This document shows positions 2,858 through 42,003 of a stretch of DNA of 53,814 nucleotides, in pieces (the first letter of the stretch is position 1; the number at the start of each line of letters is the position of its first letter). A model generated the notes under the pieces. It searched no databases, was not told where the DNA came from, and saw nothing but the letters and a program-made list of their open reading frames with translations. The stretch spans positions 1 through 53,814 of IMG/VR virus record IMGVR_UViG_3300022865_000009. The stretch is one strand, 5' to 3'. The DNA is from a virus. Taxonomy: Duplodnaviria > Caudoviricetes. Position numbers and translations under genes: made by a program.

Positions 2858-3354
2858 TGGCTATAATACCTATTGTAAACATTGCTATTAAAGGTTACAA
2901 AAAGTTACGACTACTTAAAAAAGGTGCGGATGTAATTAGAGGTACAAGTAAATCAAAAAGCGTATCTTCTGCTCCTGGGAATATATTAAATGATAAGTAC
3001 CAAGGAAGATATTTTTTTGAAAGAGCTAAAACAAAAAAAGCAGATAAAGTTAGGGTTGAAGCCGCTAAAAGTTTTGCTAAAACAAATACTGACCCAACGG
3101 CAACCTGGGGAGTTAAAACCGTTCCTAAGAAAGATAGATTAATGTTAAGAGGTAAACTAACAGCTAGGGAAACTGCTGTGGGTAGAAGATTGTTTGAAAA
3201 ATTTGCACCTAAAAGAAATCCATTTTCATATCCATCACAAAGGCAGGGCAGACTCGGTAGAATTATTGTACCTAAGAGTGCATTAAAAAGATTGAAAGTC
3301 GATAGAAAATTAACTAGAGAAGTAAGAAAAGAACGTAAGGGTGGTTTAATATAA
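2857..3354 (+). CDS. Highly basic hypothetical protein
   Basis: K/R-rich 165 aa, TAATG coupling, ends KERKGGLI. Confidence 0.7.
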   Translation: MAIIPIVNIAIKGYKKLRLLKKGADVIRGTSKSKSVSSAPGNILNDKYQGRYFFERAKTKKADKVRVEAAKSFAKTNTDPTATWGVKTVPKKDRLMLRGKLTARETAVGRRLFEKFAPKRNPFSYPSQRQGRLGRIIVPKSALKRLKVDRKLTREVRKERKGGLI

Positions 3355-5612
3355 TGTCCCAAATAAAACAACCACAAAGCTTTATTGAATCTATCCAACA
3401 AGGAAGTCTTCCTCCGTTAGAGAATAGTCCGGTGGTCGTTGAAACTCCTTATGATGAGAAAGAACCCTCAGCACTTGGAGGACTAGCAGCACTCGGTGCT
3501 ACAATCGTAGGAGCAACTGCACTTGGTAAAAGAATGCCTGGTGTTAGAAATTATTTAAGGCAGATGAGCAAGCCTGCAGCTAAAGTAGATTACTTACCTA
3601 ACAAACCAGTAGGCAATGGTCCAGTACCAACGGCCACTGGACAAGCAACAGACTTAATTGTTCAAACTCCTAAAACAGAATTAGCAGTTATAGGACGATC
3701 TAGATTTGGAGAAGTATTAGATAGACCTCTTAACTTTGGAGCACCTCTACAACCCGGTGGAAGAATATTTGGTTCATCAACTTATGACAGAGCGCTTGAG
3801 GCAAACTTTGATAAAGCTCCAGCAGATAAATGGATTCAATGGTTTAAAGATGCGAACAGAGGAGATTTAACTTATCCTGGTGGACCTTTACAAGGAGTAT
3901 CTAGAAAAGTAAGTCCAGAAGAATTATCTGATTTAAACTTAATTAACTTTGATAAATCAGGTCAACCTATTTCTGGTTTTTTAAAAACAGCTAAAGATCA
4001 AGGACTTGAAATAGATAGGGAATCTGTTTTAAAAATGATTAGACAATCGCCACTTGCTAACATTAAAACATTAAGACTAACTGCAGGTAAAGATCCAGTA
4101 GCAGACTTTGCTACTATTGCAGCAGAAGGAGATGATCTTGCAAGAACTACTGGAATTAATATGAGTGAGTTTCCAGGAGTAGTTAATTCTAATATTAGAA
4201 CAGCTATGAATACTTCAGGTCCAATTAGTTCAGACGATATTACTATGGTACAGACTTCTTTGAGACAAGCAGGAACGGAAGCTGCGGAAGCAGATAGGTC
4301 TAAGTTCTCAAACTTATTAATTAAATACAATCAAGCGGTTGGAAAGTATAATGCATCCTCTGCTAAACCTCCAATGATTCAAGGTGAGCAGGACTTGTAT
4401 AACATGTATCCAAAACATAAAGGTCAGAGAAGTTATCACTTAGATGGAGGAGAAAATTTTACTGAGGATGTTATTTACTATGATGGCCCTATGCCTAATA
4501 TCAATTCACGTAAATTTAAATATGTAGAAGGTAGTCCACACTATTTAGGTAGTTCAAAAAGAGAACTTGCGTTTGCAAGATATGATGACTTACCTAATCC
4601 TAAAATAGGAGTTGGTAAAAGACATATAAGAGTATCTGAAGTTCAATCAGATCTACACTCCCCACAATTTTCATCCGACTCTAGCACTAGAGATAAATAT
4701 TTTAAAAATAAAGTAAGTCCTTTTAACCAAGATGGTAACATTAAAATGTTACAAACAGAAAGAAAAAAACTAGTAGATCAGTTAGCTCCTTATCAAGAAC
4801 TTGGAAGAGGACGTATGGGTTTAACTAGAACTCAATTACAACAAGCAGATAGATTGAAATATAAAATAGATGAATTGGATAGAGGTGCTTTAGCTCAATT
4901 AGTTAAACAAGGTTCTGTTGATAGTACAACAGGAGGTCCTTTCTCTAGATCATATAATGATGTGGTTGTTAAGAACTTACTTCGTTCAATGGCTGAAAGA
5001 GATATTAATGCGATCTCTATTGTACCTTCAAGTATGAACCAGAATATAAAAATGTTTGATGTTGAAAAATTTGGAAATGAAATAAACTATGGATTGCAAA
5101 ATGGTAAAGCTGCTATTTTTAATAAAGCAGATGGACAGATGAAAAAATTAAATAATTATTCTTCTTTGAATGAGTCTTTAAGAAAACAAGCCAGTCAATA
5201 TGGAGCTAAGTTTGAAATGTTTCCTATGCCTAAATCTAATCCTTTAAAAGAATTTAAAATTATCGATGAGATAAGTACTAGTAATAGTTCTAGCTATAGA
5301 ATGGCAGTAGAGAGCGATAGAGCTATTTACAATAGAAAAATAGACAATGACTATATCTTTGATAATCATGTAGGAGCAGCAAATACACAAGCTGAAGCTG
5401 ACAGAATTTTAAGAGCTTACTCTAACGCAGGATCAGTTAGGGGGAACTTAGTTGTTAAACAAATGGGTCCAGATGATCCGGCTAATTATGAGATGGTTCC
5501 AACTTTGATTGCAGACAGCAATGTATTAAAGAAGTTCTTATTGCCTCAAAAGGCTTATATGAATATGGGTGGTTTAGTAGATACTACTAACATTTTTAGA
5601 TCGATATTGTAG
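3354..5612 (+). CDS. Large hypothetical protein, possible internal virion protein
   Basis: 752-aa ORF, N-terminal hydrophobic segment, RVSEVQSD motif, C-terminal YMNMGGLV. Confidence 0.65.
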   Translation: MSQIKQPQSFIESIQQGSLPPLENSPVVVETPYDEKEPSALGGLAALGATIVGATALGKRMPGVRNYLRQMSKPAAKVDYLPNKPVGNGPVPTATGQATDLIVQTPKTELAVIGRSRFGEVLDRPLNFGAPLQPGGRIFGSSTYDRALEANFDKAPADKWIQWFKDANRGDLTYPGGPLQGVSRKVSPEELSDLNLINFDKSGQPISGFLKTAKDQGLEIDRESVLKMIRQSPLANIKTLRLTAGKDPVADFATIAAEGDDLARTTGINMSEFPGVVNSNIRTAMNTSGPISSDDITMVQTSLRQAGTEAAEADRSKFSNLLIKYNQAVGKYNASSAKPPMIQGEQDLYNMYPKHKGQRSYHLDGGENFTEDVIYYDGPMPNINSRKFKYVEGSPHYLGSSKRELAFARYDDLPNPKIGVGKRHIRVSEVQSDLHSPQFSSDSSTRDKYFKNKVSPFNQDGNIKMLQTERKKLVDQLAPYQELGRGRMGLTRTQLQQADRLKYKIDELDRGALAQLVKQGSVDSTTGGPFSRSYNDVVVKNLLRSMAERDINAISIVPSSMNQNIKMFDVEKFGNEINYGLQNGKAAIFNKADGQMKKLNNYSSLNESLRKQASQYGAKFEMFPMPKSNPLKEFKIIDEISTSNSSSYRMAVESDRAIYNRKIDNDYIFDNHVGAANTQAEADRILRAYSNAGSVRGNLVVKQMGPDDPANYEMVPTLIADSNVLKKFLLPQKAYMNMGGLVDTTNIFRSIL

Positions 5613-9481: not shown

Positions 9482-9716
9482 CACTGACACAATTGGTCTT
9501 GATTACGGAGTAGTTCGTAGAGTTGCCAATAAAAGAATTGAGTCGCTAAAAGACACTATAGTGCACCAGGTTGACAACCTAGAACAACTTAACTATATTA
9601 GAGGGCAAATCAAAGGCCTAGAGTCTTTGCTTCAGGATCTTAAAGACCTGCAGCTTAAACAGGAGCGACTAAATGACGGAGAACTTAACAACTTCGGGAG
9701 AGACCCCGAAGGTTAA
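9471..9716 (+). CDS. Hypothetical coiled-coil head-module protein
   Basis: LEQLNYIRGQIKGL motif upstream of groES; ATG at 9471 preferred over the GTG at 9426. Confidence 0.65.
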   Translation: MIDDTDTIGLDYGVVRRVANKRIESLKDTIVHQVDNLEQLNYIRGQIKGLESLLQDLKDLQLKQERLNDGELNNFGRDPEG

Positions 9717-10140
9717 AACAGCATTACTTGATGCTTATAAGACAAAAGAAGAAGTCCAAGAAACAAGATTAGATGCTGATGAAGTATCTAACAATAAACC
9801 TCTTTTAGAAAAACTACCTACTCCAACAGGTTGGAGACTTTTAGTATTGCCTTACGCAGGACCTAAAAAAACTAAAGGTGGAATTCTATTAACAGAAACA
9901 ACTAGCGAAACAATACAGATGACAACCGTATGTGCATTCGTATTGAAAGTTGGTGATCTAGCCTACAAAGATAAAGTTAAATTTCCAGAAGGACCTTGGT
10001 GTGAAAAAGGTGACTGGGTAATTTTCGGAAGATATGCAGGATCTAGATTTAAGATAGATGGCGGAGAAGTTCGTCTTCTAAATGATGATGAAATTATTGC
10101 TAAGATCAACGATCCAGAGGATATACATCATCAATATTAA
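9673..10140 (+). CDS. groES: Co-chaperonin GroES (Cpn10)
   Basis: PTGWRLLV, KTKGGILL mobile loop, GDWVIFGRYAG, LLNDDEIIA. Confidence 0.92.
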   Translation: MTENLTTSGETPKVKTALLDAYKTKEEVQETRLDADEVSNNKPLLEKLPTPTGWRLLVLPYAGPKKTKGGILLTETTSETIQMTTVCAFVLKVGDLAYKDKVKFPEGPWCEKGDWVIFGRYAGSRFKIDGGEVRLLNDDEIIAKINDPEDIHHQY

Positions 10141-29994: not shown

Positions 29995-30339
29995 ATGGCT
30001 AATATATATAAAAACGCAAAACTTGATTTGACGGCTGCTACAGCTACAACTTTATATACTGTACCCTCAAACTCTAGAGCTATTATAAAATCTATTTTAG
30101 TTTGTGATGACACTAATAATGGTAGTGACATAACAGCTACTTTATATCCAGGAGATCCTGGTGCAGGAGGTGGAATTGTTTTATTTAAAAATAAAGTTAT
30201 AGCAGGTAATGCTACAGAGCAATTAATAAATGAACCTTTAATTATGCAAGAAAATGAAGTATTGGAAGTAGTTGCTGCAGACGCAAATAGATTACATATC
30301 ACAGCATCAATATTAGAAATAAACAGAGAAGATGTATAG
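29995..30339 (+). CDS. Small beta-sandwich tail-associated protein
   Basis: TTLYTVP, IIKSILV, ASILEI. Confidence 0.65.
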   Translation: MANIYKNAKLDLTAATATTLYTVPSNSRAIIKSILVCDDTNNGSDITATLYPGDPGAGGGIVLFKNKVIAGNATEQLINEPLIMQENEVLEVVAADANRLHITASILEINREDV

Positions 30340-31841
30340 TGGCTAAAAAGCTGTTGGGGTTAAGGCTATGTGAGCATGATAGTAACTTTTCTCTATACGA
30401 TGGAGAAAAAGTTTGTTATCTTAAAACCGAAAGATTACACAAACAGAAACATCACGCATATAACAATTTATTTGAATGGCAAATAGATTTAAAAGAAAAA
30501 TTTAATATTAAAGCTAGTGAAATAGATGAGATAGCTATTGTTGTAGACCCCTGGATTTATAACTTACCTTTAGATAATGAAGAGTTTTATCCAGCTGTTA
30601 ATTTTAAACACCTACCTGTAAAAAATAAAGTTTATAGAATAAACCACCATCTTGGCCATGCTTTAAGTTGTTGGCCACTATATAAAACAAGACCAAAATA
30701 CGAAATTATAATTGATGGTTTTGGAGACGCTAATAATGCATGGACTGTTCTTATAGATAACAAAATACATAAAAGAGGTTATGCAAAAAAAAATGGATCT
30801 TTAGGATTAGCTATGGCAAAAGTAGGTAAAGCTTTTGGGATAAATTCACAACAAGTTTATGATATTGCAGGAAAGTTAATGGGTCTTCAATCTTATGGAA
30901 ATATTTTACCAGAATTTAAAAAGTCTTTAGATTATAATATATATTCTATAAATAAATTGTTTGATTTTAATAATTACAAAGAGTATAAACAAAATCTATT
31001 GTTAGCAGAACTGCAGCCTTTAGATTGGATAAGAACAGTCCACGATAAAGTATCAGATATATTAATTAATTTTTTTGAGGAAGTAACCAATAAAGATTAT
31101 GATGCCTATATATCTTACTCTGGTGGTGTTGCTCAAAATGTTATATGGAATACTGCTCTTAAAAATAAATTTAAAAATTTAATTATACCTCCCCATTGTA
31201 ATGATGAGGGTCTTTCCTTGGGAGCTTTAGAGTATTTAAGAATTAAAAATAATTTACCAAAATTTAAATTAAATAATTTTCCATACATTCAATCTGACGA
31301 AGAACCTTTAACTAAGCCAAATGAAAAAACTTTTAAAGAGACTGCGGAATATTTAAAACAAGGGTGTATCGTTGCCTGGTATCAAGGTAATGGAGAAATA
31401 GGTCCTAGGGCTTTAGGGAATAGGTCTTTACTATTTAACCCTTTAGTAAAAAATGGAAAAAATATAATTAACAAAATTAAAAAAAGAGAAACTTACAGAC
31501 CTTTTGGTGCGTCTATATTAAAAGAACATGTTAAAGAATATTTCAATACTGATATTGAAAACCCTTTTATGCTTTATGTAGGTAGTGTTAATAATGAAAA
31601 TTTAAAAAGTATAACCCATATAGACGGCACATGTAGATATCAAAGTGTAGATAAAGCAAATAAAGTATACTATAATTTAATTAATGAATTTTACAAAAAA
31701 ACAGGATGCCCTATTGTGTTGAACACAAGTTTTAATATTAACGGAAAACCAATAATGTCTGATATTAAAGACGCTAAAAAATTTTTCAATAATTCTAATA
31801 TCGATATATTAGTAATCGGCAATGAAATCTTTAAAAAATAA
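30339..31841 (+). CDS. Carbamoyltransferase (NodU/CmcH/TobZ family)
   Basis: HD, ER, HHLGHA, DGFGD, GKLMGL, SGGVAQN, EIGPRALGNRS, RPFG, LNTSFN. Confidence 0.93.
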   Translation: MAKKLLGLRLCEHDSNFSLYDGEKVCYLKTERLHKQKHHAYNNLFEWQIDLKEKFNIKASEIDEIAIVVDPWIYNLPLDNEEFYPAVNFKHLPVKNKVYRINHHLGHALSCWPLYKTRPKYEIIIDGFGDANNAWTVLIDNKIHKRGYAKKNGSLGLAMAKVGKAFGINSQQVYDIAGKLMGLQSYGNILPEFKKSLDYNIYSINKLFDFNNYKEYKQNLLLAELQPLDWIRTVHDKVSDILINFFEEVTNKDYDAYISYSGGVAQNVIWNTALKNKFKNLIIPPHCNDEGLSLGALEYLRIKNNLPKFKLNNFPYIQSDEEPLTKPNEKTFKETAEYLKQGCIVAWYQGNGEIGPRALGNRSLLFNPLVKNGKNIINKIKKRETYRPFGASILKEHVKEYFNTDIENPFMLYVGSVNNENLKSITHIDGTCRYQSVDKANKVYYNLINEFYKKTGCPIVLNTSFNINGKPIMSDIKDAKKFFNNSNIDILVIGNEIFKK

Positions 31842-31978
31842 TGGCTAAAAAATCTAAAGAACACCACGAACGTAATCAACCTAAAAAAAGAGGACCACGC
31901 CAACATAAAAAATGTTTAAATAAAAATGAGAAACGACAAAAACGTACTCGAAGATACAAAGGCCAAGGTAAGGGCTAG
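31841..31978 (+). CDS. 45-aa highly basic peptide (not in ORF track)
   Basis: MAKKSKEHHERNQPKKRG...RRYKGQGKG; TAATG coupling. Confidence 0.6.
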   Translation: MAKKSKEHHERNQPKKRGPRQHKKCLNKNEKRQKRTRRYKGQGKG

Positions 31979-32010
31979 ACAAATAAACTTAAAAGTATTA
32001 TATAAGATAT

Positions 32011-32202
32011 ATGGAAATAAAAAGAATACCAGCACAAGCAAAAGAAATTGTTAAACACAAAAGAACAGGTGTAATCTACACTGATAAAGCAGCATTTGAT
32101 GCAGATGTAGCTGATTCAAATACAGATACTACAGCAGAAGATTTTCAACAAGATTTAGAAATTACTGTAGCTTCTATGACTGTGGACGGTGAAACTCAAT
32201 AA
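32011..32202 (+). CDS. Small acidic hypothetical protein
   Basis: 63 aa; TAGACA-17bp-TATATA promoter-like element just upstream. Confidence 0.65.
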   Translation: MEIKRIPAQAKEIVKHKRTGVIYTDKAAFDADVADSNTDTTAEDFQQDLEITVASMTVDGETQ

Positions 32203-32212
32203 CAATTAATTT

Positions 32213-33157
32213 ATGCAACCATTAGGTGGAACGGAGCTTCAATATGCTCAGTTATATAAACACGTAGATAATACGTTGTTAGATAAGTTTCAGATAACTA
32301 CATCTATTCCAGAAAAAATACCTTTATCTAAAGATAAAATTAATATTCTTTGGGTACAAAACTCATATGACCAAGGTAATCTGGCTCCATGGTTTAAAGA
32401 TAAATCTAATCATAGTAAATATGATTGGTATGTATTTAACTCTCATTGGTGTGCAGAAAAGTTTAGAATGGCATTTAAAGTACCCCCCGAAAAATGTGTA
32501 GTTATTAAAAATGCTATAGAGAAATTTGCGGATAAACCTACTCACAAGAACGGTGATAAAATAAAATTAATATATACCTCTACTCCATGGAGAGGACTAT
32601 CTGTATTACTAGGTGCTATGCAGTTAATTAAAAATCCTTTAATAGAATTAGATGTTTATTCCTCTACCCAAATATATGGAGATGCTTTTAAAAAAGCTAA
32701 TGATACCTCTTATCAAGAATTATATGAACAAGCTAAAAAATTACCTAATGTAAATTACATAGGCTATGCTTCTAACGAAAAAATAATAAAGAAGATGGGT
32801 GAATATAAAATATTTGCTTATCCCAATATATGGGAAGAAACTTCTTGTATGTCAGCTATCGAAGCTTTAGGAAGTGGACTTCATGGAATTGTAACTAATT
32901 ACGGAGCTTTGTTTGAAACGTGTTCAGAGTGGCCGACTTACGTTCAATATGATAGAGATTACAAAAATTTAGCTAAATGTTTTGCTTATGCAATTGAAGG
33001 AATTTCAGAACAACTTCATTCAGTGGGAATGCAACAATTATTAGATTCACAAGTATCTTTTTATAAGAAATTTTATAGTTGGGAAAATAGAAAAAACGAA
33101 TGGACTAACTTTTTACAAGGAGCTTATGATGCAAAATCACGAACCAATTTGGTTTAA
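32213..33157 (+). CDS. Glycosyltransferase (GT-B, GT4-like)
   Basis: GGTE, YTSTPWRGL, YPNIWEETSCMSAIEA (EX7E). Confidence 0.88.
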   Translation: MQPLGGTELQYAQLYKHVDNTLLDKFQITTSIPEKIPLSKDKINILWVQNSYDQGNLAPWFKDKSNHSKYDWYVFNSHWCAEKFRMAFKVPPEKCVVIKNAIEKFADKPTHKNGDKIKLIYTSTPWRGLSVLLGAMQLIKNPLIELDVYSSTQIYGDAFKKANDTSYQELYEQAKKLPNVNYIGYASNEKIIKKMGEYKIFAYPNIWEETSCMSAIEALGSGLHGIVTNYGALFETCSEWPTYVQYDRDYKNLAKCFAYAIEGISEQLHSVGMQQLLDSQVSFYKKFYSWENRKNEWTNFLQGAYDAKSRTNLV

Positions 33158-33950
33158 CGAAGAACAATCAACACCGGACACTAAGAAAAAAGCAGGCTAT
33201 TCTTTATTTGTAGCAACACCTGTTCATAGTGAATGCTCTATTCATTATACTCAAGCTTTATTAAATTTACAAAAATATTGTTTTAAAAAGAATGTAAAAT
33301 TATGGTTTTCTATAATGAAATCTTCATTAGTTACTCAAGGAAGAAACATGTGTGTAAGTGCATTTTTACAACAAAAAGATGCTACTCATTTATTATTTGT
33401 TGATTCAGATATTTCTTTTAATGAATCTGCTCCAGAAAGATTGGTGGCTTGTGATAAAGATGTTATTTCTATTCCATATCCTTTAAAAGATATAAATTGG
33501 GATAAAGGAATGCACATGATTAAAGAAGGTAAAATTAAAGAAGCTAAAGATTTAAGAAACAAAGGTTTTTACAGATACCCTATGAAAGTAGAAAATAATT
33601 CTGCTATTAAAATTAAAGATGGAGTTATTAAAGTAGAGCATTCTCCAACAGGTTTTATGTTAATTAAAAGAGAAGTAATCCTTAAAATGATAGAGGCTTA
33701 CCCTGAAATGAGAATTGATCAAGACCAGATAATTAATGGTAAGAATGAAAAACTACCTGATTTTTGGAACTTCTTTGATACTCAATTTGATCCTATTAAA
33801 CATACTTACACAGGAGAAGATTTTGCTTTTTGCCAAAGATGGAAAGACATTGGAGGTGAATGCCATGCTTGGATTATGGATCACATAACTCATATTGGAG
33901 AACATCAATATACTGGTCGTTTTGCGGATGAGTTGATAAAGACTGACTAA
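33126..33950 (+). CDS. Glycosyltransferase (GT-A, GT2-like)
   Basis: VATP, SLVTQGRN, LLFVDSD (DxD), TGFMLIKR, GEDFAFC. Confidence 0.82.
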   Translation: MMQNHEPIWFNEEQSTPDTKKKAGYSLFVATPVHSECSIHYTQALLNLQKYCFKKNVKLWFSIMKSSLVTQGRNMCVSAFLQQKDATHLLFVDSDISFNESAPERLVACDKDVISIPYPLKDINWDKGMHMIKEGKIKEAKDLRNKGFYRYPMKVENNSAIKIKDGVIKVEHSPTGFMLIKREVILKMIEAYPEMRIDQDQIINGKNEKLPDFWNFFDTQFDPIKHTYTGEDFAFCQRWKDIGGECHAWIMDHITHIGEHQYTGRFADELIKTD

Positions 33951-34005: not shown

Positions 34006-35034
34006 TTGGACCCATTTACAATGGCCTTACTGACTTTTGGTACACAAAAACTCAGAGGTAAATCTACTAAAAGATCTTTCAGAGACGCTATGCTAATAGG
34101 TACGATGGGTCAATTAGGAGGAATGGCTGGAGTAGGTGGAATTACTCCTTTTGGATCAGCAACTACAGCAGGAACTACTATTCAAGGTATAGGACAAACT
34201 TCAGCGGCTCAAGGTTTAAGAGGTCTATTCCCACAATTCGCTTCACAAGCAGCAACTACAGCAGTACCAGCAGGTACTGGAACAGTAGCAGCTAACTCAC
34301 CTTTTGCAACAGCAGGAAGTTCTGCTATGTCAGGAGCAGGAGCAACAGCGGCAAAACCAGCATCAACTGGAATTATGGAAACTTTAAAAGGTTTTGTACC
34401 TAAATCTGATGCAGGAAAAATAGCAGCAGCATCTATGGCACTTCCTTTACTAGCAGGTGATGACGGTCCTAATAAAACGTATTTACCTATACCTAATCAA
34501 GCTTACACAAAATATGCTAATGCTGGTTTTGGAGGAACTCCAACTGGATTTCAAACAAGAGATTATTCAACAGGAATAAATTCTCCTTTAGTACAACCTG
34601 GAGAGTTTGTAACACCGGAAGAAGTTTTAGGAGACGAGCCTACTCAAACATTTAAAGCAGTTGAAATGAATACTGGTGGACTTGCTAGTATTGCAAAATT
34701 TAATGAAGGTGGAATGGGACAAGTGCTTCCTACTAAAATGACTCATGATGAAAATGATTCTAATAACTATGACAGAGCAAACGGTTTTGTATTAGATGGA
34801 ACAGGTCATGGAAAAGATCACGAAGATACTATGTTAGCTCAATTAGCTGATGGAGAGTTTGTATCTAGATCTCATGCAGTTTTAGGTGCAGGTATTATTG
34901 CTGGAGCAAATCCTAGCGATAAATCAGATCAAAGAAAAAAAGGATCTAAGTTTTTTTACGATCAACAAAAACAATTTAAAAGAATTTTTGATTTAATAAA
35001 TGCAAACAAAAACAGAACTGATTCAGTTCACTAA
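34006..35034 (+). CDS. Putative ejection/internal virion protein with C-terminal DGEFV domain
   Basis: TTG start with AGGAG SD; MDPFT start, Gly/Ala-rich; G.G.G..EDTMLAQLADGEFV. Confidence 0.65.
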   Translation: MDPFTMALLTFGTQKLRGKSTKRSFRDAMLIGTMGQLGGMAGVGGITPFGSATTAGTTIQGIGQTSAAQGLRGLFPQFASQAATTAVPAGTGTVAANSPFATAGSSAMSGAGATAAKPASTGIMETLKGFVPKSDAGKIAAASMALPLLAGDDGPNKTYLPIPNQAYTKYANAGFGGTPTGFQTRDYSTGINSPLVQPGEFVTPEEVLGDEPTQTFKAVEMNTGGLASIAKFNEGGMGQVLPTKMTHDENDSNNYDRANGFVLDGTGHGKDHEDTMLAQLADGEFVSRSHAVLGAGIIAGANPSDKSDQRKKGSKFFYDQQKQFKRIFDLINANKNRTDSVH

Positions 35035-35422
35035 AGAGGAGATAGACGGTATATGGAATTTAGTAAAAAATCTAATTCGAAAAGCGTGTATCAGAGCGGG
35101 AGGATTTGTAAGTGAAGAACATATTAAAGAATATTGTAAACAAGGTAAAATGCAGCTTTGGGTGGTTATTACAGAAACTAATGAAGTTCTCTGTGTTTGT
35201 GTTACTGAAATTAGAAAATACCCTAATTACAGTGTTTGCGACACTAAAATTGTCACTGGTAAACGTTATAAAGAGTGGTTTGACTATGTTGATAAAATTT
35301 CTGAATGGGCTAAAGAACAAGGTTGTAAAAAAATGGAAATATTTTCAAGGCCGGGTTATGTCTCTATGTTCAAAGAAAAAGGTTACTCAGCAACACATGT
35401 ACAAGTAGAAAAAGAATTATGA
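35000..35422 (+). CDS. GNAT-like protein of the ejection module
   Basis: CVTEI..YP, WAKEQGC..ME..SRPG. Confidence 0.6.
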   Translation: MQTKTELIQFTKEEIDGIWNLVKNLIRKACIRAGGFVSEEHIKEYCKQGKMQLWVVITETNEVLCVCVTEIRKYPNYSVCDTKIVTGKRYKEWFDYVDKISEWAKEQGCKKMEIFSRPGYVSMFKEKGYSATHVQVEKEL

Positions 35423-36504
35423 TAGATATTAAAAAATTAAATATAAAAGAAAAAATAGAGTTATTTAAAAAACTAGGTAAAGAAATTGCTAGTAAAGGTA
35501 TTAACGGGGATACAGAATTAGCTCATATTAATCCTTTTGAAAAAAAATTATTAATTAACCACGGTGGTTCTGGAACAATAAATTTAGAAACAGGTTTACC
35601 ACAATATTTTGGTGGTGGAGGCGGTGGTGGAGCAGCACCTTCTACTACTACACAATATATAAGAGAAGCACCAGGGATAGAAGAAAGAAAACTTGGTTTA
35701 ATGGATACTGCAGCGGAGCTTGCAAAAACTCCAGTTAACATTCCTCAAATTAATGTACAAGGAATGGGTACATTAGAGAAACAAGGTATTACTCAATCAG
35801 GAACTACAGGGGTTGGCGCTAATACTATGAATGCAGGTATTGGATCAGTATTAAATGCACAAAATGCGGCAGCTTTAGATCCTACTTCTTCACAATTTCA
35901 AAATTATTTAAATCCTTATTCATCTTTCGTTACAGATGAAATTAATAGACAATCTCAAATGCAACAAAACCAACTAAGTCAAAATGCAGTTATGGGCGGA
36001 GCATTTGGTGGCGGACGGGAAGGTGTTCAAAGAGCAGAATTAGGTGGAAGAACTTTATCAGCAATAGGACAAGCTCAAGGTACAGTTTTTCAAAATGCAA
36101 TGAACTCATTTCAAAATAACCAAAATTTACAAGCTCAGACAAATTTGAATGCAGGTTCTCAATATGCTCAAATGGGTCAGGCGCAACAAGGTATGGCTCA
36201 ACAAGACATTAATCAATTAATGGCTGCTGGTGGTTTACAAAGACAATTAGGTCAACAAGCGCTAGATGCTACAAGACAAACAGAACTACAAAGAGCTTAC
36301 GAACCTTTTCAAAGAGCAGAGTTTGTTAAAAATATGTATGCTGCAGGACCTACAACTCAGTCTGCTATTACTCAATCTACTTCTCCAGGAACTAATCCAC
36401 TTGCTCAAGCAGCAGGTGCTGGACTCGGAGCATACGCAACTTACTCAGCTTTAAATAAAGCTCCTGCCCTTCAAAGCGCAGCAGCAACTACTGGAAGAGC
36501 GTAG
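35419..36504 (+). CDS. Putative DNA ejection/internal virion protein
   Basis: GDTELAHIN...GGSGTINLETGLPQY, Q/A-rich helical body, GAFGGGR. Confidence 0.7.
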   Translation: MIDIKKLNIKEKIELFKKLGKEIASKGINGDTELAHINPFEKKLLINHGGSGTINLETGLPQYFGGGGGGGAAPSTTTQYIREAPGIEERKLGLMDTAAELAKTPVNIPQINVQGMGTLEKQGITQSGTTGVGANTMNAGIGSVLNAQNAAALDPTSSQFQNYLNPYSSFVTDEINRQSQMQQNQLSQNAVMGGAFGGGREGVQRAELGGRTLSAIGQAQGTVFQNAMNSFQNNQNLQAQTNLNAGSQYAQMGQAQQGMAQQDINQLMAAGGLQRQLGQQALDATRQTELQRAYEPFQRAEFVKNMYAAGPTTQSAITQSTSPGTNPLAQAAGAGLGAYATYSALNKAPALQSAAATTGRA

Positions 36505-36508
36505 CATT

Positions 36509-38716
36509 ATGGATAAAACCTTAATGAGACCTTTATTCAGAAAGAGAGCCACTCAACTTAGAGTAGTTGATAGTAAAGCTGTTCCTAAATTTTTTGTTGG
36601 GGGAATTATGTCAGCAGCAAATACTGCTAGAGCAGTCGCTGCTCCTGCATTTAGATATTTAGGAAATAAAATGGCGGGACCAAAAGTTTCAACTGCACTA
36701 ACAGGATTAGAAGCAGGTTCTGCAGGTTATGGTATTAATGAAATGGCCAAAGGAGTTAGAGATGGAGACACAGGACAATTTTTAGAAGGTGCTGCTTACG
36801 CTGTACCAGGTGCTGCTTTTTTACCCTCTACTGCTAGAAGATCTGGAATTGCAGCTATAAGAGAACTAGGAGAATTTGGAGCATCAAGAGCAACTCCTGT
36901 TGCTCAAGCATTAATAAACAATCCAGGTAAAACAGCTGTAGGATCTATTGGTACAGCTTTAGTTGGTCAAGGTATGCAAGGAGATGGAACTGCATCTGAT
37001 TTAAGTCAAGTTTCTGGAGGAGTAAAATCTATTGAAGAAAGATTAATTTATTCTAAACCAGAATATAATCCAGATCCAAAGAAAAAAGTTACTCAAAATT
37101 TAAAAGATTATAAGGAAATGGAAAAAAACTTTAAACCTAAAGTTATTGGAGTTGAAAATCCTTCTACTCCAGAAGAACTTCAATTAAATGAAGACTTACC
37201 TAAAGCAAATAAAATTATAGCAATTGCAGAAGAACTTGGATTAGATGTAAATAATCTTGCTTCAGTAGGAGAGGAAACTTTAAAAAAAATAGCTGAACAA
37301 ACTGATGTACCTTTACCAGATGTTCTTAGACTATCTGGATTTGACGGAAACGGTCAAGATCCAGAACCTGTTGCACCTACTATAGATGGACAGATTAATC
37401 AAGTGACTCAAAATATTGAAGGAATGACAGATGATGAAGTAAATAGAATGGTTAAGAATAGACAGAATGAAATTAAAAAAGCAAATAATCTATCTCCATT
37501 AAGTAAAGAATTTCAAACATTTAAAAATGAACTAGATCAAATGACAGGCGGTAGCGGTAATTTAAATAATTTAATAGCCATGAAATTTGCAGCAAAATTA
37601 ATGACAGGAAAAAGTAATCAAAGAGGTTTGTCTGGATTAGTAGATATAGCAGGACAAGGTTTAGAATCTGCGAGTACTGATTTGATGAACATAGCCTTAG
37701 CTCAAAAAAATCAAGATATGGTTTTAGCTCAATCATTTTTAAAATCTAAAGCAGCGGCGGCAAAAGCTGCAAAAGCTGGACCAGGTTTTGTAGGTGGAGA
37801 TAAAGTATTCAGCGTAGAAGATCCCGCATACCCAGGACAGTTCTATAATGTTAAAGGAATGATGGGTAAAGACGGAAAAATTTATCATAGAAATAAAAAT
37901 AATGAAGTTGTTGAAGCTACAGCAGGAGCATATGAAAGACCAATAAATTCAGACAAAATGAATTTATATGCATCTAACTTAGAGGAAAATAAAAGAGGAG
38001 CTGAAATGATTGATTTTGTTATTAACTCTCTTCCACAAGACGGAACGTTTAGTGCTGCATTTGGTTTAGCAAAAGAAGATATATTTGGAACTCTTGAACA
38101 AGTTACGGGGACAAATGGAATAACAAGTTCTGATTTTGATTCTGAAATAAAAAGTTTAATGAGAAATAATGATGGTACCGAAGAAGGTATGAAAGCAACT
38201 GAAAAAATGCTTAAAGAATACGATAAAGACATGGGTAAAGTAGAGAAAAGAGCAAACGAAATGGCTAAAGCTTCTTATAAAGAAAGAGGAGGAGGATTTT
38301 TATCAAGACCTTCTGATGATGAATTAGCAAGATTTACTAAATTAGCTTTAATTGAACAAAGAATGAAATATCTTGTTGCGAATGCAAACAAAGCAGAAGA
38401 TAGATTGACTCAAAAAGATATTGAAAATGCTGCTCAACGTACAGAAATTATTAAATTTTACGGTTCAGCTAAAACGGTTAGAGCAAACTACATGAATTTA
38501 AAAAAAGAATTTGAAGATAAAGCTCAGTCATTTGCTATGTCATACAGACAAAATGGTGGAACAGAATCTTCTATGCAATACTTTAAAGAAAATGTACCTG
38601 GAGTAGAACAATTATATTCTAAACAACAAGCAGATTTCTTATCTAATCAAAGAACAAAAAATAAAACTGAAAGAAATAAAATTTTAACTACTATACCTAT
38701 AGCCGGAGGTAATTAA
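36509..38716 (+). CDS. Putative internal virion (ejection) protein
   Basis: 735 aa; RPLF leader then FFVGG; position in the module. Confidence 0.65.
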   Translation: MDKTLMRPLFRKRATQLRVVDSKAVPKFFVGGIMSAANTARAVAAPAFRYLGNKMAGPKVSTALTGLEAGSAGYGINEMAKGVRDGDTGQFLEGAAYAVPGAAFLPSTARRSGIAAIRELGEFGASRATPVAQALINNPGKTAVGSIGTALVGQGMQGDGTASDLSQVSGGVKSIEERLIYSKPEYNPDPKKKVTQNLKDYKEMEKNFKPKVIGVENPSTPEELQLNEDLPKANKIIAIAEELGLDVNNLASVGEETLKKIAEQTDVPLPDVLRLSGFDGNGQDPEPVAPTIDGQINQVTQNIEGMTDDEVNRMVKNRQNEIKKANNLSPLSKEFQTFKNELDQMTGGSGNLNNLIAMKFAAKLMTGKSNQRGLSGLVDIAGQGLESASTDLMNIALAQKNQDMVLAQSFLKSKAAAAKAAKAGPGFVGGDKVFSVEDPAYPGQFYNVKGMMGKDGKIYHRNKNNEVVEATAGAYERPINSDKMNLYASNLEENKRGAEMIDFVINSLPQDGTFSAAFGLAKEDIFGTLEQVTGTNGITSSDFDSEIKSLMRNNDGTEEGMKATEKMLKEYDKDMGKVEKRANEMAKASYKERGGGFLSRPSDDELARFTKLALIEQRMKYLVANANKAEDRLTQKDIENAAQRTEIIKFYGSAKTVRANYMNLKKEFEDKAQSFAMSYRQNGGTESSMQYFKENVPGVEQLYSKQQADFLSNQRTKNKTERNKILTTIPIAGGN

Positions 38717-41700
38717 TGGTAGCTATAAATCAATTACAAAAAGCTATTGATGCAAAACAAATAGACACTCGTTCTTTAAGTCAAGATCAGTTAGGTGCTC
38801 TAGACGATGCCTTTAAAACAGGTGAATTAACTGGATATAAAAACGTAGGTGAGTACGAAAGATTAATTGACTTGGGGGCCATGAGTGTAGCTAAAGGTAA
38901 AATGGCAAGGTTAAAGCCTATGGAATCTTCTACAGGAATTGGTAGAGGAGATATGGTATTAGCAGGAACATTAGGTTTTGGAATGCTTCCTTACATGGTA
39001 GAAAGAGAATCTTTAATAAGTTCTTATGTTAAAAATGGTTTCAAAGATAATTACGGTATAGACAACAGATACGTAGCAGGATCAAGTATTTACGATAAAA
39101 GATTATCTAAAATGAGTGAGTTTGCTAAAAAATTAAAAAAAGTACCTGGACCTATAGGTGCTCCAGTTAGATTATTAGGTAATACAATTGGAATGCTAGA
39201 TAACACTGTAGATTTTTTTAAAAAAGTAGAAAAGTTTGGACCTAGTCCAGCGTTAGCAGTTGAAGCTAAAGCGTCTTTAGGAGCAATAGGAGGAGCGTTT
39301 GGAGGAAGTGCTGCATTTGATATATCTAATTTAGGTGCTGATTTTGTAGGAGCTACTTCAAAAGATTTAGCTGAACTAACAGATAGTGATGAAAGAAAAC
39401 TACCTTTTGTTGAAAGAATGTTTTTAAATGGACTTAGAGCAAGTAGAGATGAAATGTTATGGACAGGGGGAGCTTTAGGTTTAATAGGAGTAGTTAGAAA
39501 TGCTAAAGGAATGGTTAAATCTTCATTAGATTTAGATAAACCACAAGCAAAAGCAATAGCTGCAGCAGCAGAAAGATCTAACCAAAAAATAAATATAGTA
39601 GATTTAATTCCAGCAGACAATCCCGGATTCAAAGGAGCTTGGCAAGGCTTTACAAAAAAATTCTTTACTACTCTTGGGGTATACCCTTTGGTAGGACAAC
39701 CTTTAAAAGATTTTAATAGAACTTTTAATGCTAATTTAACTCAAGAACAATTATTAAACACTATGGATAACTTAGAACTTCCACCAATGGTTAATAATAG
39801 TATTCTTAACTACGCTGGTGTTAATCAAATAAAAAGTGAGTTTAAAAACGTTTGGAAAACTATTGATGATGAATACGGAAGATTTAGAAATCATTACGAA
39901 CAATTAGGTAATCCTACTTTTATACCAACTACAAATGTAAGAAACGTTACTAAAACATTATTAGATAGATTAAAATTAGAGTATCCAGAAAGATTTGATA
40001 TTTGGGAGGGTTTAGAAAAAGGAGCTAAAGATTTAACAGATGTAGATGATCCAATGGTTCAATACGTTAAATATTTAAATAAATTAACGGATCCAAATGA
40101 TTACTACAATAAAGGAGGATACATTCGATTAAGTGATATGTTGGGTTTATCTAAAATGTTAACTAAAGCATATTCAGGTAGTAATTTTAAAGTAGTAGAT
40201 AATGAAGTAATTAGATTTAAAAAAGCTTTTGAAAATGATGTAAACTCTTTAGGAGAAGCCGCTAACAGAGATGTATTAAAAGATAAAATATTTAAAGATG
40301 AGTATGGAATGAAACTTTCTCAAGAAGGCCCAGAAGCAGCAGAAGCTTTCTTGGATACAAATATTAATGTAGCAAATTCAGCTTTGAAACAATTACAAGA
40401 AGCTAACGCTTATTATTCTATGGTTCTAAGACCTTTTGAAAAATCTTCTGTAGCTAGAAAATTAATGGCAGTAGATAGAAAATTATTTGCTAGTAAAGGT
40501 ATAGATATGACAGGTATAGAATCTATTGCACCCGATCAAGTTTTTGACAAAGTAATAAAAGGAACTTTATCTGGAGATAGTCCTTTAGCAATTAAACAAT
40601 TAAAACAAATACTAGGAGTTACTGATTCTTCATACGACATATTAAAAGCAGATGGTACGATAGATAGAACAGTTAAAATACCTGTTAGTAAAGAATCACA
40701 AGCAGTGTGGGATAGATATGTTAAACAGTGGTTATGGGAATCTATTAACAAAGCTACTTCTAATCCTATTAGAGATTTAAAAGGATTAAGTGCTCAAGCT
40801 ATTGCTGCTAGAGCAGCTGATAAAGGTTTTGTTAGAAAGAATTTTAATCCACTGGACTTAGAAACAGAAAGAAGAGTTAGAGCTAAAACTAGAACTGATG
40901 AAATAAGTAGCGTAACAGATGTGGATGCAAGAATATTTACTCAAGGAGACGGAGTAGCTAATCTTAATGAAGGTTTAATACGTAACCATGATTTTGGACA
41001 ATTAGGTATTGATGATCTAACTAAAAATTTAGGAATTGATAACAAACAAGGTAAAGATAAAATAAGAGAAATATTTGGCGGTGGACCAAAAGGAGACAAA
41101 GCTCTTAAAATGTTTGAAGATCTTGTTGAAGTTAAAAGAGCTATGGAAAGTGTTCCATCTACAGATCCTGCTAAATTTATTCAAAGAAGTTTAACTTTAA
41201 GAGCAGGTAGTGGACAAGGGGGTATGACTACTACAGCAGTAACAGGAGCAGTTTTAGGTATAGGAAATACTTTAAAACTTATGTTAGGTGCAAGATTATT
41301 TGGTGAAGTTATCGCAAGTGCTAAAGTAGCTGAAAATGTAATGGAGATGAATAAAGCACATAGATTTTTATTAAATGCAGACGCAGATTCTATTTTTCCT
41401 GGAAAAGGAAGAATACCTTTAACTCCTAAACTTTATAACGATGCTTTATTAACTTATGGAAGAACAGTTAATAGTTTGTTTGAAGCAATGGGGGATGAAT
41501 TTAGAGTGGATCCTAATAAAATAGATTTTGAAGAAGTCAGACAAAAATTAATATCATTAGATCCTAATGTTCCTTTAGGAAATAGTTATGATTTTGGAAG
41601 TATGTCTAAATTTACAAGAGACAGAATTTATCCAGAATATGATGTAAGTAAAATGTTAAGTCCTGAAATGAGAAGAGCAGGAGAAGAATATTTAACTGGC

Positions 41701-42003
41701 GCTTCTATAATGGGTGCTAGTCATAATCAATTTCAAAAATTAATGAACTCTAATCCTTTACAACTGGCAGCAGAAGCACCGGTTAACACGCCTCCAGTAG
41801 AGCCGATTGCAGCACAATCACCAACGACTACTATGCCAACGGCCACTCAACCAACAGCAAATCAAGGTGAAAAATTTGCAACATTATTCCCTCAAGATAC
41901 ATTAGGTCAAGCTCTAGCTAATAAAAATCAACCTCAACAAATGAATGAAGGTGGATTAGTAGAAGATGCCTACAAAAGAGCAGACGAGGTTCTAAGTGCC
42001 TAA
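38716..42003 (+). CDS. Large putative internal virion (ejection) protein
   Basis: 1095 aa, last large gene of the structural module; GGAGG SD; C-terminal MNEGGLV. Confidence 0.7.
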   Translation: MVAINQLQKAIDAKQIDTRSLSQDQLGALDDAFKTGELTGYKNVGEYERLIDLGAMSVAKGKMARLKPMESSTGIGRGDMVLAGTLGFGMLPYMVERESLISSYVKNGFKDNYGIDNRYVAGSSIYDKRLSKMSEFAKKLKKVPGPIGAPVRLLGNTIGMLDNTVDFFKKVEKFGPSPALAVEAKASLGAIGGAFGGSAAFDISNLGADFVGATSKDLAELTDSDERKLPFVERMFLNGLRASRDEMLWTGGALGLIGVVRNAKGMVKSSLDLDKPQAKAIAAAAERSNQKINIVDLIPADNPGFKGAWQGFTKKFFTTLGVYPLVGQPLKDFNRTFNANLTQEQLLNTMDNLELPPMVNNSILNYAGVNQIKSEFKNVWKTIDDEYGRFRNHYEQLGNPTFIPTTNVRNVTKTLLDRLKLEYPERFDIWEGLEKGAKDLTDVDDPMVQYVKYLNKLTDPNDYYNKGGYIRLSDMLGLSKMLTKAYSGSNFKVVDNEVIRFKKAFENDVNSLGEAANRDVLKDKIFKDEYGMKLSQEGPEAAEAFLDTNINVANSALKQLQEANAYYSMVLRPFEKSSVARKLMAVDRKLFASKGIDMTGIESIAPDQVFDKVIKGTLSGDSPLAIKQLKQILGVTDSSYDILKADGTIDRTVKIPVSKESQAVWDRYVKQWLWESINKATSNPIRDLKGLSAQAIAARAADKGFVRKNFNPLDLETERRVRAKTRTDEISSVTDVDARIFTQGDGVANLNEGLIRNHDFGQLGIDDLTKNLGIDNKQGKDKIREIFGGGPKGDKALKMFEDLVEVKRAMESVPSTDPAKFIQRSLTLRAGSGQGGMTTTAVTGAVLGIGNTLKLMLGARLFGEVIASAKVAENVMEMNKAHRFLLNADADSIFPGKGRIPLTPKLYNDALLTYGRTVNSLFEAMGDEFRVDPNKIDFEEVRQKLISLDPNVPLGNSYDFGSMSKFTRDRIYPEYDVSKMLSPEMRRAGEEYLTGASIMGASHNQFQKLMNSNPLQLAAEAPVNTPPVEPIAAQSPTTTMPTATQPTANQGEKFATLFPQDTLGQALANKNQPQQMNEGGLVEDAYKRADEVLSA

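Follow-up and report, generated by a model that had tools for sequence, protein, structure and literature searches.

An open reading frame (ORF) at positions 34006 to 35034 (+) of a phage genome window encodes a 342-residue protein whose C-terminal part carries a module built around the motif GEFV. Sequence comparisons support its homology to an element near the C-terminal end of tape measure proteins (TMPs) of long-tailed phages. The window is the whole 53,814-nucleotide stretch that we analyzed, positions 1 to 53,814 of IMG/VR record IMGVR_UViG_3300022865_000009 (Duplodnaviria; Caudoviricetes). Its source is an HTVC023P-type pelagiphage, from a group with podovirus morphology. The cassette in this protein is inherited from, or shared with, TMPs. 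We suggest, at a probability of roughly one half, that it belongs to an ejected protein and serves for docking or self-pairing, not as an enzyme, because evidence from solved tails and a model of self-association both point that way. The module is undescribed so far. "GEFV" together with "tape measure" matched no publication in a full-text search, and Pfam had no model covering the module in the seven proteins scanned (this protein, lambda gpH, four TMPs, and a protein of phage DSL-LC04).

The GEFV module and tape measure proteins

The module opens with two motifs of the form bulky-x-x-G-G (xxGG), MNTGGL at residues 221 to 226 (34666 to 34683, +) and FNEGGM at residues 232 to 237 (34699 to 34716, +). 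A linker with conserved NY.R..G and G.G follows (residues 240 to 270; 34723 to 34815, +), and its counterpart in distant family members and in TMPs is (F/Y)PR.NG.I.GPG. The core, residues 271 to 300 (34816 to 34905, +), consists of the DHEDTMLAQLADGEFV strand and a short helix, SRSHAVLGAG. It is the stretch common to TMPs and contains nearly all the invariant residues. A long C-terminal helix, residues 306 to 339 (34921 to 35022, +), was predicted by AlphaFold2 with a predicted local distance difference test score (pLDDT) above 90. This helix is specific to the short-tailed-phage form; TMPs have a further bulky-A-x-G-G and about 90 residues instead. A preliminary description, made from the letters alone, had reported MNTGG and FNEGG followed by ...DTMLAQLADGEFVSRSHAV... 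at 34660 to 34990, which corresponds to residues 219 to 328. All of these motifs were found in place (M221-N-T-G-G225 and F232-N-E-G-G236), and the stretch from G260 to V292 reads GFVLDGTGHGKDHEDTMLAQLADGEFVSRSHAV, identical to the earlier quotation.

A word-index search that scored 8000 candidates found 3105 relatives of the protein at E ≤ 1e-3. The 120 relatives listed were 53 to 100% identical to it, had no Pfam domain, and were called hypothetical wherever they were named. An exhaustive search with residues 150 to 342 gave 129 representatives, clustered at 50% identity, at E ≤ 1e-3 (80 at ≤ 1e-10 and 57 at ≤ 1e-30). The short-tailed-phage-type members are 250 to 714 residues long, and the module is always C terminal in them. 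DGEFV occurs in 116 of the 129 representatives and is followed by a median of 47 residues (range, 20 to 72). Twelve residues are invariant in an 86-member alignment (D274, A278, L280, D282, G283, E284, F285, V286, G296, G300, G313, and Y318), and G224 and G235, one Gly of each xxGG motif, are retained in at least 90% of its members. Distant members read (F/Y)PR.NG.I.GPGT..SDDIPAMLSDGEFV..A.AVRG.G...GA......EQR..GA..MY. The xxGG motif is enriched upstream of DGEFV, although these proteins are Gly-Gly rich throughout. Of the 96 members long enough for the test, 73 have it in the 90 residues before DGEFV, compared with 72 of 173 other 90-residue windows of these proteins; the windows are related sequences, and the comparison is rough.

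As a single query against PDB sequences, the protein gave just a chance match, to an adenylate kinase (E = 1.6). We then used a profile of 32 module sequences (A1), which found four of 177,635 distinct PDB sequences at E ≤ 10. Two of these are TMPs. Mycobacteriophage Douge gp16 (E = 5.6e-11) has two copies, at residues 968 to 1001 and 1416 to 1449 of 1699, and Pseudomonas phage JBD30 gp46 (E = 0.1) was matched at residues 1023 to 1058 of 1158. The two non-TMP sequences are unrelated (E = 0.25 and 1.7). As a hidden Markov model (HMM), A1 matched all seven fetched phage proteins annotated as tape measure in a 196-protein set (E = 3e-21 to 1.1e-8); the best match among the other window proteins was at E = 1.3. 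Alignment of A1 with five true TMP modules by hhalign gave P = 1.3e-17 and a probability of 98.9. With the module of a distant member, P0351, tblastn retrieved 297 phage records. Tape measure annotations stood in 42 of the 60 rows listed, and the remaining 18 were unnamed or otherwise labeled, including two "endolysin" entries and two Pelagibacter phages. No T7 or P22 hosts were among the ten most frequent of the 26 organism names tallied. The profile, HMM, hhalign, and tblastn results thus support the earlier claim of a tape-measure-type, near-C-terminal module in a short-tailed-phage protein. Separately, we noticed that the tape measure gene of two mycobacteriophages (NC_023604, our locus L089, and NC_051623) is labeled "endolysin" in RefSeq and tape measure in the GenBank twins.

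In five of the six true TMPs examined, 93 to 106 residues separate GEFV from the C terminus: 94 in V-YDF132, 106 in VW-6B, 97 in SBP33, about 103 in Quantum, and 93 in R3. In the sixth, that of mycobacteriophage Jolie2, the distance is about 436 residues. The true TMPs carry a bulky-x-x-G-G before the module and a bulky-A-x-G-G after it, as lambda does.

The lambda layout given in the preliminary description proved correct. In translated gpH, FATGG lies at residues 733 to 737 and HRGEFV at 752 to 757, followed by ..KEA..; a second motif, YATGG, lies at 778 to 782, and 96 residues follow GEFV. The comparison of the module with gpH that it had called for succeeded by way of TMP intermediates, and the direct match was weak. 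A1 aligned with the single gpH sequence at P = 0.13, and with profiles of 38 to 42 diverse lambda-like ends at P = 0.0046 and 0.014, in the expected register. These ends were taken from genome contigs, because a word-index search with gpH residues 700 to 853 returned solely near-identical Escherichia coli tape measures among the 120 matches listed. A lambda-like HMM matched the VW-6B module at E = 1.3e-5 in the 196-protein set. The TMP-module profile aligned with the lambda-like profile at P = 5e-5, a score reached by none of 150 column shuffles. Burkholderia phage SBP33 shares with lambda the Pfam combination of TMP_2 and Tape_meas_lam_C and also has L, K, and I genes of the lambda type; its canonical GPGTSTSDSIPAMLSNGEFV stands directly after Tape_meas_lam_C, at the place of lambda's GGKYEPAGIVHRGEFV. 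Because the TMP intermediates, SBP33, and the position agree, gpH appears to hold a diverged copy of the same module, a relationship that we regard as real but indirect.

In the lambda gpHC module, the invariant columns of alignment A3 form a core, GGK(Y/F)EP(A/K)GIVH.GE(F/Y)V, with bulky-A-x-G-G on both sides. Between the pelagiphage protein and the lambda type, GEFV and the following G.G align (the P values of 0.0046 to 0.014 above); the pelagiphage protein lacks both the GGKYEP half and the second motif downstream. An AlphaFold2 model of a lambda-like gpH end (Escherichia L026 plus 37 relatives) has short helices right after GEFV, like the model of the pelagiphage protein, but at a mean pLDDT of 50.6 it is too uncertain to serve as a structural comparison.

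Two further observations were made among the lambda-type loci. Of 32 loci (L004 to L024, L028, L031, and L033 to L040), 31 matched lambda gene H, with best segments 98 to 100% identical; L028 translated without the motif. The assemblies that contain these loci belong to unrelated bacteria, among them Pseudomonas, Oceanobacillus, Shewanella, and Bradyrhizobium. Several of the loci lie on contigs of about 48.4 kb, and they look like leftover lambda control DNA, not prophages. The near-identical loci were excluded from the lambda-like alignments. In addition, L056 (Mannheimia sp.) has a lambda-type end with two tandem GGKYEPAGIVH.GEYV modules, which echoes the two copies in Douge gp16.

The module is thus conserved in mycobacteriophages, in lambda-like phages, and now in HTVC023P-type pelagiphages. 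In gpH it falls within residues ~690 to 817, a part that no solved structure shows and that borders a cleavage in a glycine-rich region near residues 690 to 710, for which the protease and exact site are reported as unknown (PMC12617516). Recognition of the module gives an entry point to the holding, pairing, or cutting of tape measures, and lambda is a system for a direct genetic test of it.

Predicted structure and possible roles

The AlphaFold2 model of the whole protein, built from 86 sequences, has a mean pLDDT of 62.6 and is confident only at residues 285 to 340. The confident helices are a short one at 289 to 298 and the long one at 306 to 339, and overall the module is predicted as one strand and two helices. 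Residues 221 to 285, which hold the xxGG motifs and the strand before GEFV, have a pLDDT of about 46 to 73, a level that one would expect if this segment requires a partner.

We modeled residues 215 to 342 in three copies. The model scored 0.42, and the best of three controls scored 0.07. Among solved proteins, the 0.42 mark was reached by 20 of 30 same-chain pairs and by 1 of 23 single chains, although the calibration used two copies and our model used three copies and a custom alignment. The runs agreed in at least 82% of contacts, with a partner pLDDT of at least 64. The lowest-error contacts join residues 283 to 292 of one copy with 283 to 292 and 314 to 328 of another, and the predicted interface spans 273 to 295. 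Self-pairing through the GEFV strand is therefore predicted by the model.

We suggest the following scenario. Judging from the genes, the product would be present in the virion as an internal protein and would be ejected, taking the role that the distal TMP end has in long-tailed phages. Its last ~125 residues would form the cassette. This begins with a bulky-x-x-G-G turn, or two of them, and continues through a linker rich in Gly to the invariant extended strand (D-T-M-L-A-Q-L-A-D-G-E-F-V) and a helix, to which the pelagiphage form adds the long terminal helix. The cassette may fold only on binding. Its GEFV strand would then lie edge to edge with the same strand of a second copy, or with one from a channel protein, with the helices acting as a clamp. 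In this way, before ejection or in its course, the C termini of extended Gly/Ala-rich chains could be tied to each other or to the place where the DNA channel exits.

Docking to the tail channel is proposed by analogy with two tails. In phage T5, the last 43 residues of pb2* are ordered, between the hub subunits, only once the hub has opened (PMC10038345). For JBD30, the authors predict a "hook" of helices and a short hairpin at TMP residues 1022 to 1066, a baseplate anchor that would form after a speculative cut, a prediction based on T5 (PMC11445458). The hook segment is the stretch matched by our A1 profile.

Several points weigh against this reading. The score of 0.42 sits exactly at the mark, which up to 19 of 100 single chains may reach, and the confident interface is formed by two of the three copies only. 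In the available descriptions of solved tails, only the last 30 to 40 TMP residues are visible (PMC12617516, PMC10721106, PMC13033339, PMC11445458). The module region is unresolved in every one: lambda ~690 to 817, Douge outside 1658 to 1699, and JBD30 outside the last 33 residues. The region therefore has no fixed symmetric place in the mature virion. The module profiles did not detect T5 pb2 at E ≤ 10, and the T5 anchor analogy therefore rests on position and not on sequence. The xxGG motifs may be less specific than they appear, given that 72 of 173 background windows contain one. Finally, few structural proteins are named for HTVC023P-type phages in the accessible text of their description (10.1101/2019.12.14.876532), and a term search of the available text of an HTVC023P-group genome survey (PMC9599517) found no mention of tape measure, internal virion, or ejection proteins.

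Another possibility, somewhat unlikely in our judgment, is that xxGG and GEFV mark a cut made at maturation or ejection by a protease encoded elsewhere, in the phage or the host, with the module as the element of the substrate that serves for recognition or positioning. Both TMPs known to be cut are cut near the module region. T5 pb2 is cut after R1127 (PMC10038345), in the sequence ..NSFVPR / AEGGMMYPG.., and lambda gpH is cut near 690 to 710, just upstream of FATGG (PMC12617516). Similar motifs also end the window's 752- and 1095-residue proteins and HTVC023P gp83. However, the lambda cut leaves the whole module in gpHC, bound to gpI (PMC12617516), and therefore the module is retained and not consumed. 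Moreover, tails and heads assemble separately, so that one head protease cannot explain both settings. No protease family was recognized among the 24 window proteins scanned with Pfam and/or PHROGs, including ten head-region proteins.

Pairing and cutting could also be combined. We consider it doubtful that bulky-x-x-G-G and GEFV form a universal latch in proteins whose exit from the virion precedes that of the DNA. In such a latch, GEFV would pair chains and the Gly-Gly turns would be cut in maturation, as in T5 pb2 and lambda gpH. Pairing of two chains by GEFV would explain why lambda and other phages have six tape measure chains but only three C termini docked in the tip. If the latch exists, tape measures and podovirus ejection proteins would share one mechanism and a common origin.

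It is improbable that the module is a loading signal, which would bind the portal or scaffold and so bring the protein into the procapsid, along with the other ejection proteins that it would recruit. Podoviruses have to take up their internal proteins before they package DNA. The terminal position of the module in every short-tailed-phage-type member fits such a signal, as does the fusion of the N-terminal motif of a neighboring 361-residue protein to module proteins P0330 and P0368. However, the same module is found in TMPs, which never enter heads, and a head-specific role would therefore be secondary.

We give similarly little weight to a reduced tape measure, a true TMP descendant that would still set the length of the short-tail channel, or fill it, with the module acting as in siphophage tail initiation. 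Such a descent is suggested by the replication genes of HTVC023P-type phages, which are like those of siphophages such as Dinoroseobacter phage R5C (10.1101/2019.12.14.876532), and by the R5C tape measure itself, which bears the module in the P0351 tblastn search. The DSL-LC04 relative is also annotated as a tape measure. Like TMPs, the pelagiphage protein has a near-C-terminal bulky-x-x-G-G plus GEFV element. However, Pfam did not find TMP_2, TMP_3, or PhageMin_Tail in it or in the DSL-LC04 protein, and all four true TMPs scanned have one of these. The AlphaFold2 model contains no long helical rod, and no tail tube or chaperone family was seen among the neighboring genes. The family lengths of 250 to 714 residues also argue against a tape measure.

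Very improbable, finally, is the proposal of the preliminary description that xxGG sites are cut, or read by catalysis, by the GEFV domain acting as an (auto)protease, with conserved Asp and Glu as catalytic residues: no peptidase family or fold was found, the confident structure consists of only one strand and two helices, and the Asp is not generally conserved. The family searches covered Pfam, NCBIfam, and PHROGs, and a Foldseek search with the whole-protein model, which is confident only at 285 to 340, gave nothing at E ≤ 0.001 in BFVD or PDB. D274, D282, and E284 are invariant in the pelagiphage-type family, and the Glu of GEFV (E284) is general beyond it. The two Asp residues are not: Asn replaces D282 in the TMPs of Douge, JBD30, and the Vibrio, Pseudomonas, Burkholderia, Streptomyces, and Paracoccus phages, and in the lambda-type alignment, D274 and D282 stand opposite Pro and Arg. 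Points in favor of the proposal are the invariance of the three residues in the pelagiphage-type family and the statement that the mode of gpH cleavage in lambda is unknown (PMC12617516). A resemblance to an S24/S26-type Ser-Lys peptidase motif, seen by eye, was dropped, since the spacing differs and there is no family match. The adaptor that the same description had offered as an alternative survives in a weaker form, as the docking or self-pairing element that we favor, and not as a catalytic reader of xxGG.

The gene and its neighborhood

The gene starts with the TTG at 34006, and (M)DPFT recurs at the N termini of homologues (P0080, P0096, P0113, P0120, and HTVC023P gp79). It is the first gene of a putative ejection-protein cluster. 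Pelagibacter phage HTVC023P gp79, a hypothetical protein with 58% identity over the matched parts, is its sole cultured match. The protein has no Pfam, PHROG, or NCBIfam family match. A conserved N-terminal segment, MDPFT..FG.QKLRGKST.. (residues 1 to 40; 34006 to 34125, +), was recognized by alignment and has two helices predicted by AlphaFold2. It is followed by a variable linker (residues 41 to 135; 34126 to 34410, +) that is rich in Ala (0.21), Gly (0.17), and Thr (0.15), differs in length between homologues, and was modeled at low confidence (pLDDT of about 40 to 52). A first GEFV, overlooked in the preliminary description, lies at residues 199 to 202 (34600 to 34611, +). The homologues read GKYI, STYR, and STYK there, and we therefore regard it as a coincidence outside the module. 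Hydropathy revealed no clear membrane helix (highest 19-residue Kyte-Doolittle mean, 1.2). A search for longer proteins bearing residues 205 to 342 found none at E ≤ 0.01, which we count as weak evidence.

HTVC023P-type phages are podoviruses by electron microscopy; according to their description, no known viral group in the sea is more abundant, and very few of their structural proteins can be recognized (10.1101/2019.12.14.876532). The window has a G+C content of 33% and encodes terminase, portal, major head, tail, and tail-fiber genes. A carbamoyltransferase and glycosyltransferases precede the module gene; four more genes follow it, and then come nuclease, helicase, primase, and DNA polymerase. 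The position of the module gene, behind the tail genes in a series of large proteins that lack a family, is that of podovirus ejection proteins.

The next gene (35000 to 35422, +) encodes 140 residues with weak acetyltransferase-like matches in Pfam and PHROGs. A 361-residue protein (35419 to 36504, +) follows, with a weak match to PHROG 4287, "DNA ejection protein" (E = 4e-7), and an N terminus that reads GDTELAHINPFEKKLL..GGSGTIN. The cluster also contains family-less proteins of 735 residues (36509 to 38716, +) and 1095 residues (38716 to 42003, +). The latter has the C-terminal end ..QMNEGGLVEDAYKRADEVLSA, and phage DSL-LC04 has a counterpart of it with the annotation "DNA transfer protein"; HTVC023P gp83 ends ..LFNRGGIADVRRK.

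The N terminus of the 361-residue protein (35419 to 35640) reads GDTELAHINPFEKKLL..GGSGTINLETGLPQYF, then a run of seven Gly, and is loosely like the DTMLAQLADGEFV strand. A similar motif is fused N terminally to the GEFV-module proteins P0330 and P0368 (2 of the 129 representatives), and HTVC023P gp81, the counterpart of the 361-residue protein, lacks the motif, its sequence beginning with the run of Gly. These observations suggest that modules are shuffled at Gly runs and that the module gene and the gene for the 361-residue protein are functionally linked.

Elsewhere in the window, a family-less 752-residue ORF in the terminase-portal interval (3354 to 5612) ends with YMNMGGLVDTT.. at 5558 to 5612. 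The 1095-residue ORF ends with the same kind of tag, QMNEGGLVEDA.., at 41938 to 42003. In HTVC023P, gp82 has FKEGGLGS near its start, and gp83 has the LFNRGGIADVRRK end. A GroES/Cpn10-like protein is encoded at 9673 to 10140, between the portal and head genes (Pfam Cpn10; E = 5.5e-11). Between the tail genes and the ejection cluster, 30339 to 33950 encodes a Nol-type carbamoyltransferase, a glycosyltransferase, and another conserved protein, a block that resembles the auxiliary gene islands described for HTVC023P-type phages.

Comparison with known systems

In gene position, the module protein is like the ejection or internal virion proteins of podoviruses. Its 361-residue neighbor matches phrog_4287, but the module protein itself matches no PHROG. 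A parallel in gene order is phage DSL-LC04, a freshwater phage. Its protein WJZ48115.1, called "tail tape measure protein" by an automatic label, has a terminal module (A1 HMM, E = 3e-21) and no Pfam family, and is 759 residues long compared with 342 here. The gene order matches that of the window: the module protein, two hypotheticals, the "DNA transfer protein," a nuclease, and a helicase. Over the 41.5 kb of the DSL-LC04 record that we examined, the annotation includes no tail tube gene, and the tape measure label is probably an effect of the module.

T5 pb2 has a C-terminal anchor at residues 1085 to 1127, near the TMP end like the module, and is cut after R1127. Its AEGG adjoins the only precisely mapped TMP cut. 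It has no GEFV and resembles the module in position and function alone. Only after ejection is the T5 segment ordered, when it adds to a hub β-hairpin (PMC10038345).

In lambda gpHC, the region of about 727 to 790 holds FATGG, GGKYEPAGIVHRGEFV, and YATGG, with the same layout as in TMPs and a similar distance to the C terminus (96 residues). The continuation, GEFV-x-x-K-x-A-x-x-R-I-G-V-G, is like that of the module. The half before GEFV differs, with GGKYEPAGIVHR in place of GPGT..SD.IPA.LSD.

The module is shared with Douge gp16 (PDB 8ZDO, chain S), JBD30 gp46 (8RK3, chain A), and the TMPs of Vibrio phage V-YDF132, Pseudomonas phage VW-6B, Burkholderia phage SBP33, Streptomyces phage Quantum, and Paracoccus phage R3. 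The TMPs are 783 to 1738 residues long and have TMP N-terminal Pfam domains, whereas the pelagiphage protein has 342 residues and no other family. In the TMPs, the element is internal and is followed by bulky-A-x-G-G and ~93 to 106 residues that end in a hub-docking helix. In the pelagiphage protein, it is terminal and is followed by a single long helix, and D282 takes the place of the Asn of the TMPs. All share a common core after bulky-x-x-G-G: G-x-I-x-GPGT-x-x-SD-x-IPA-x-LS-(D/N)-GEFV-x-x-A-x-x-V.

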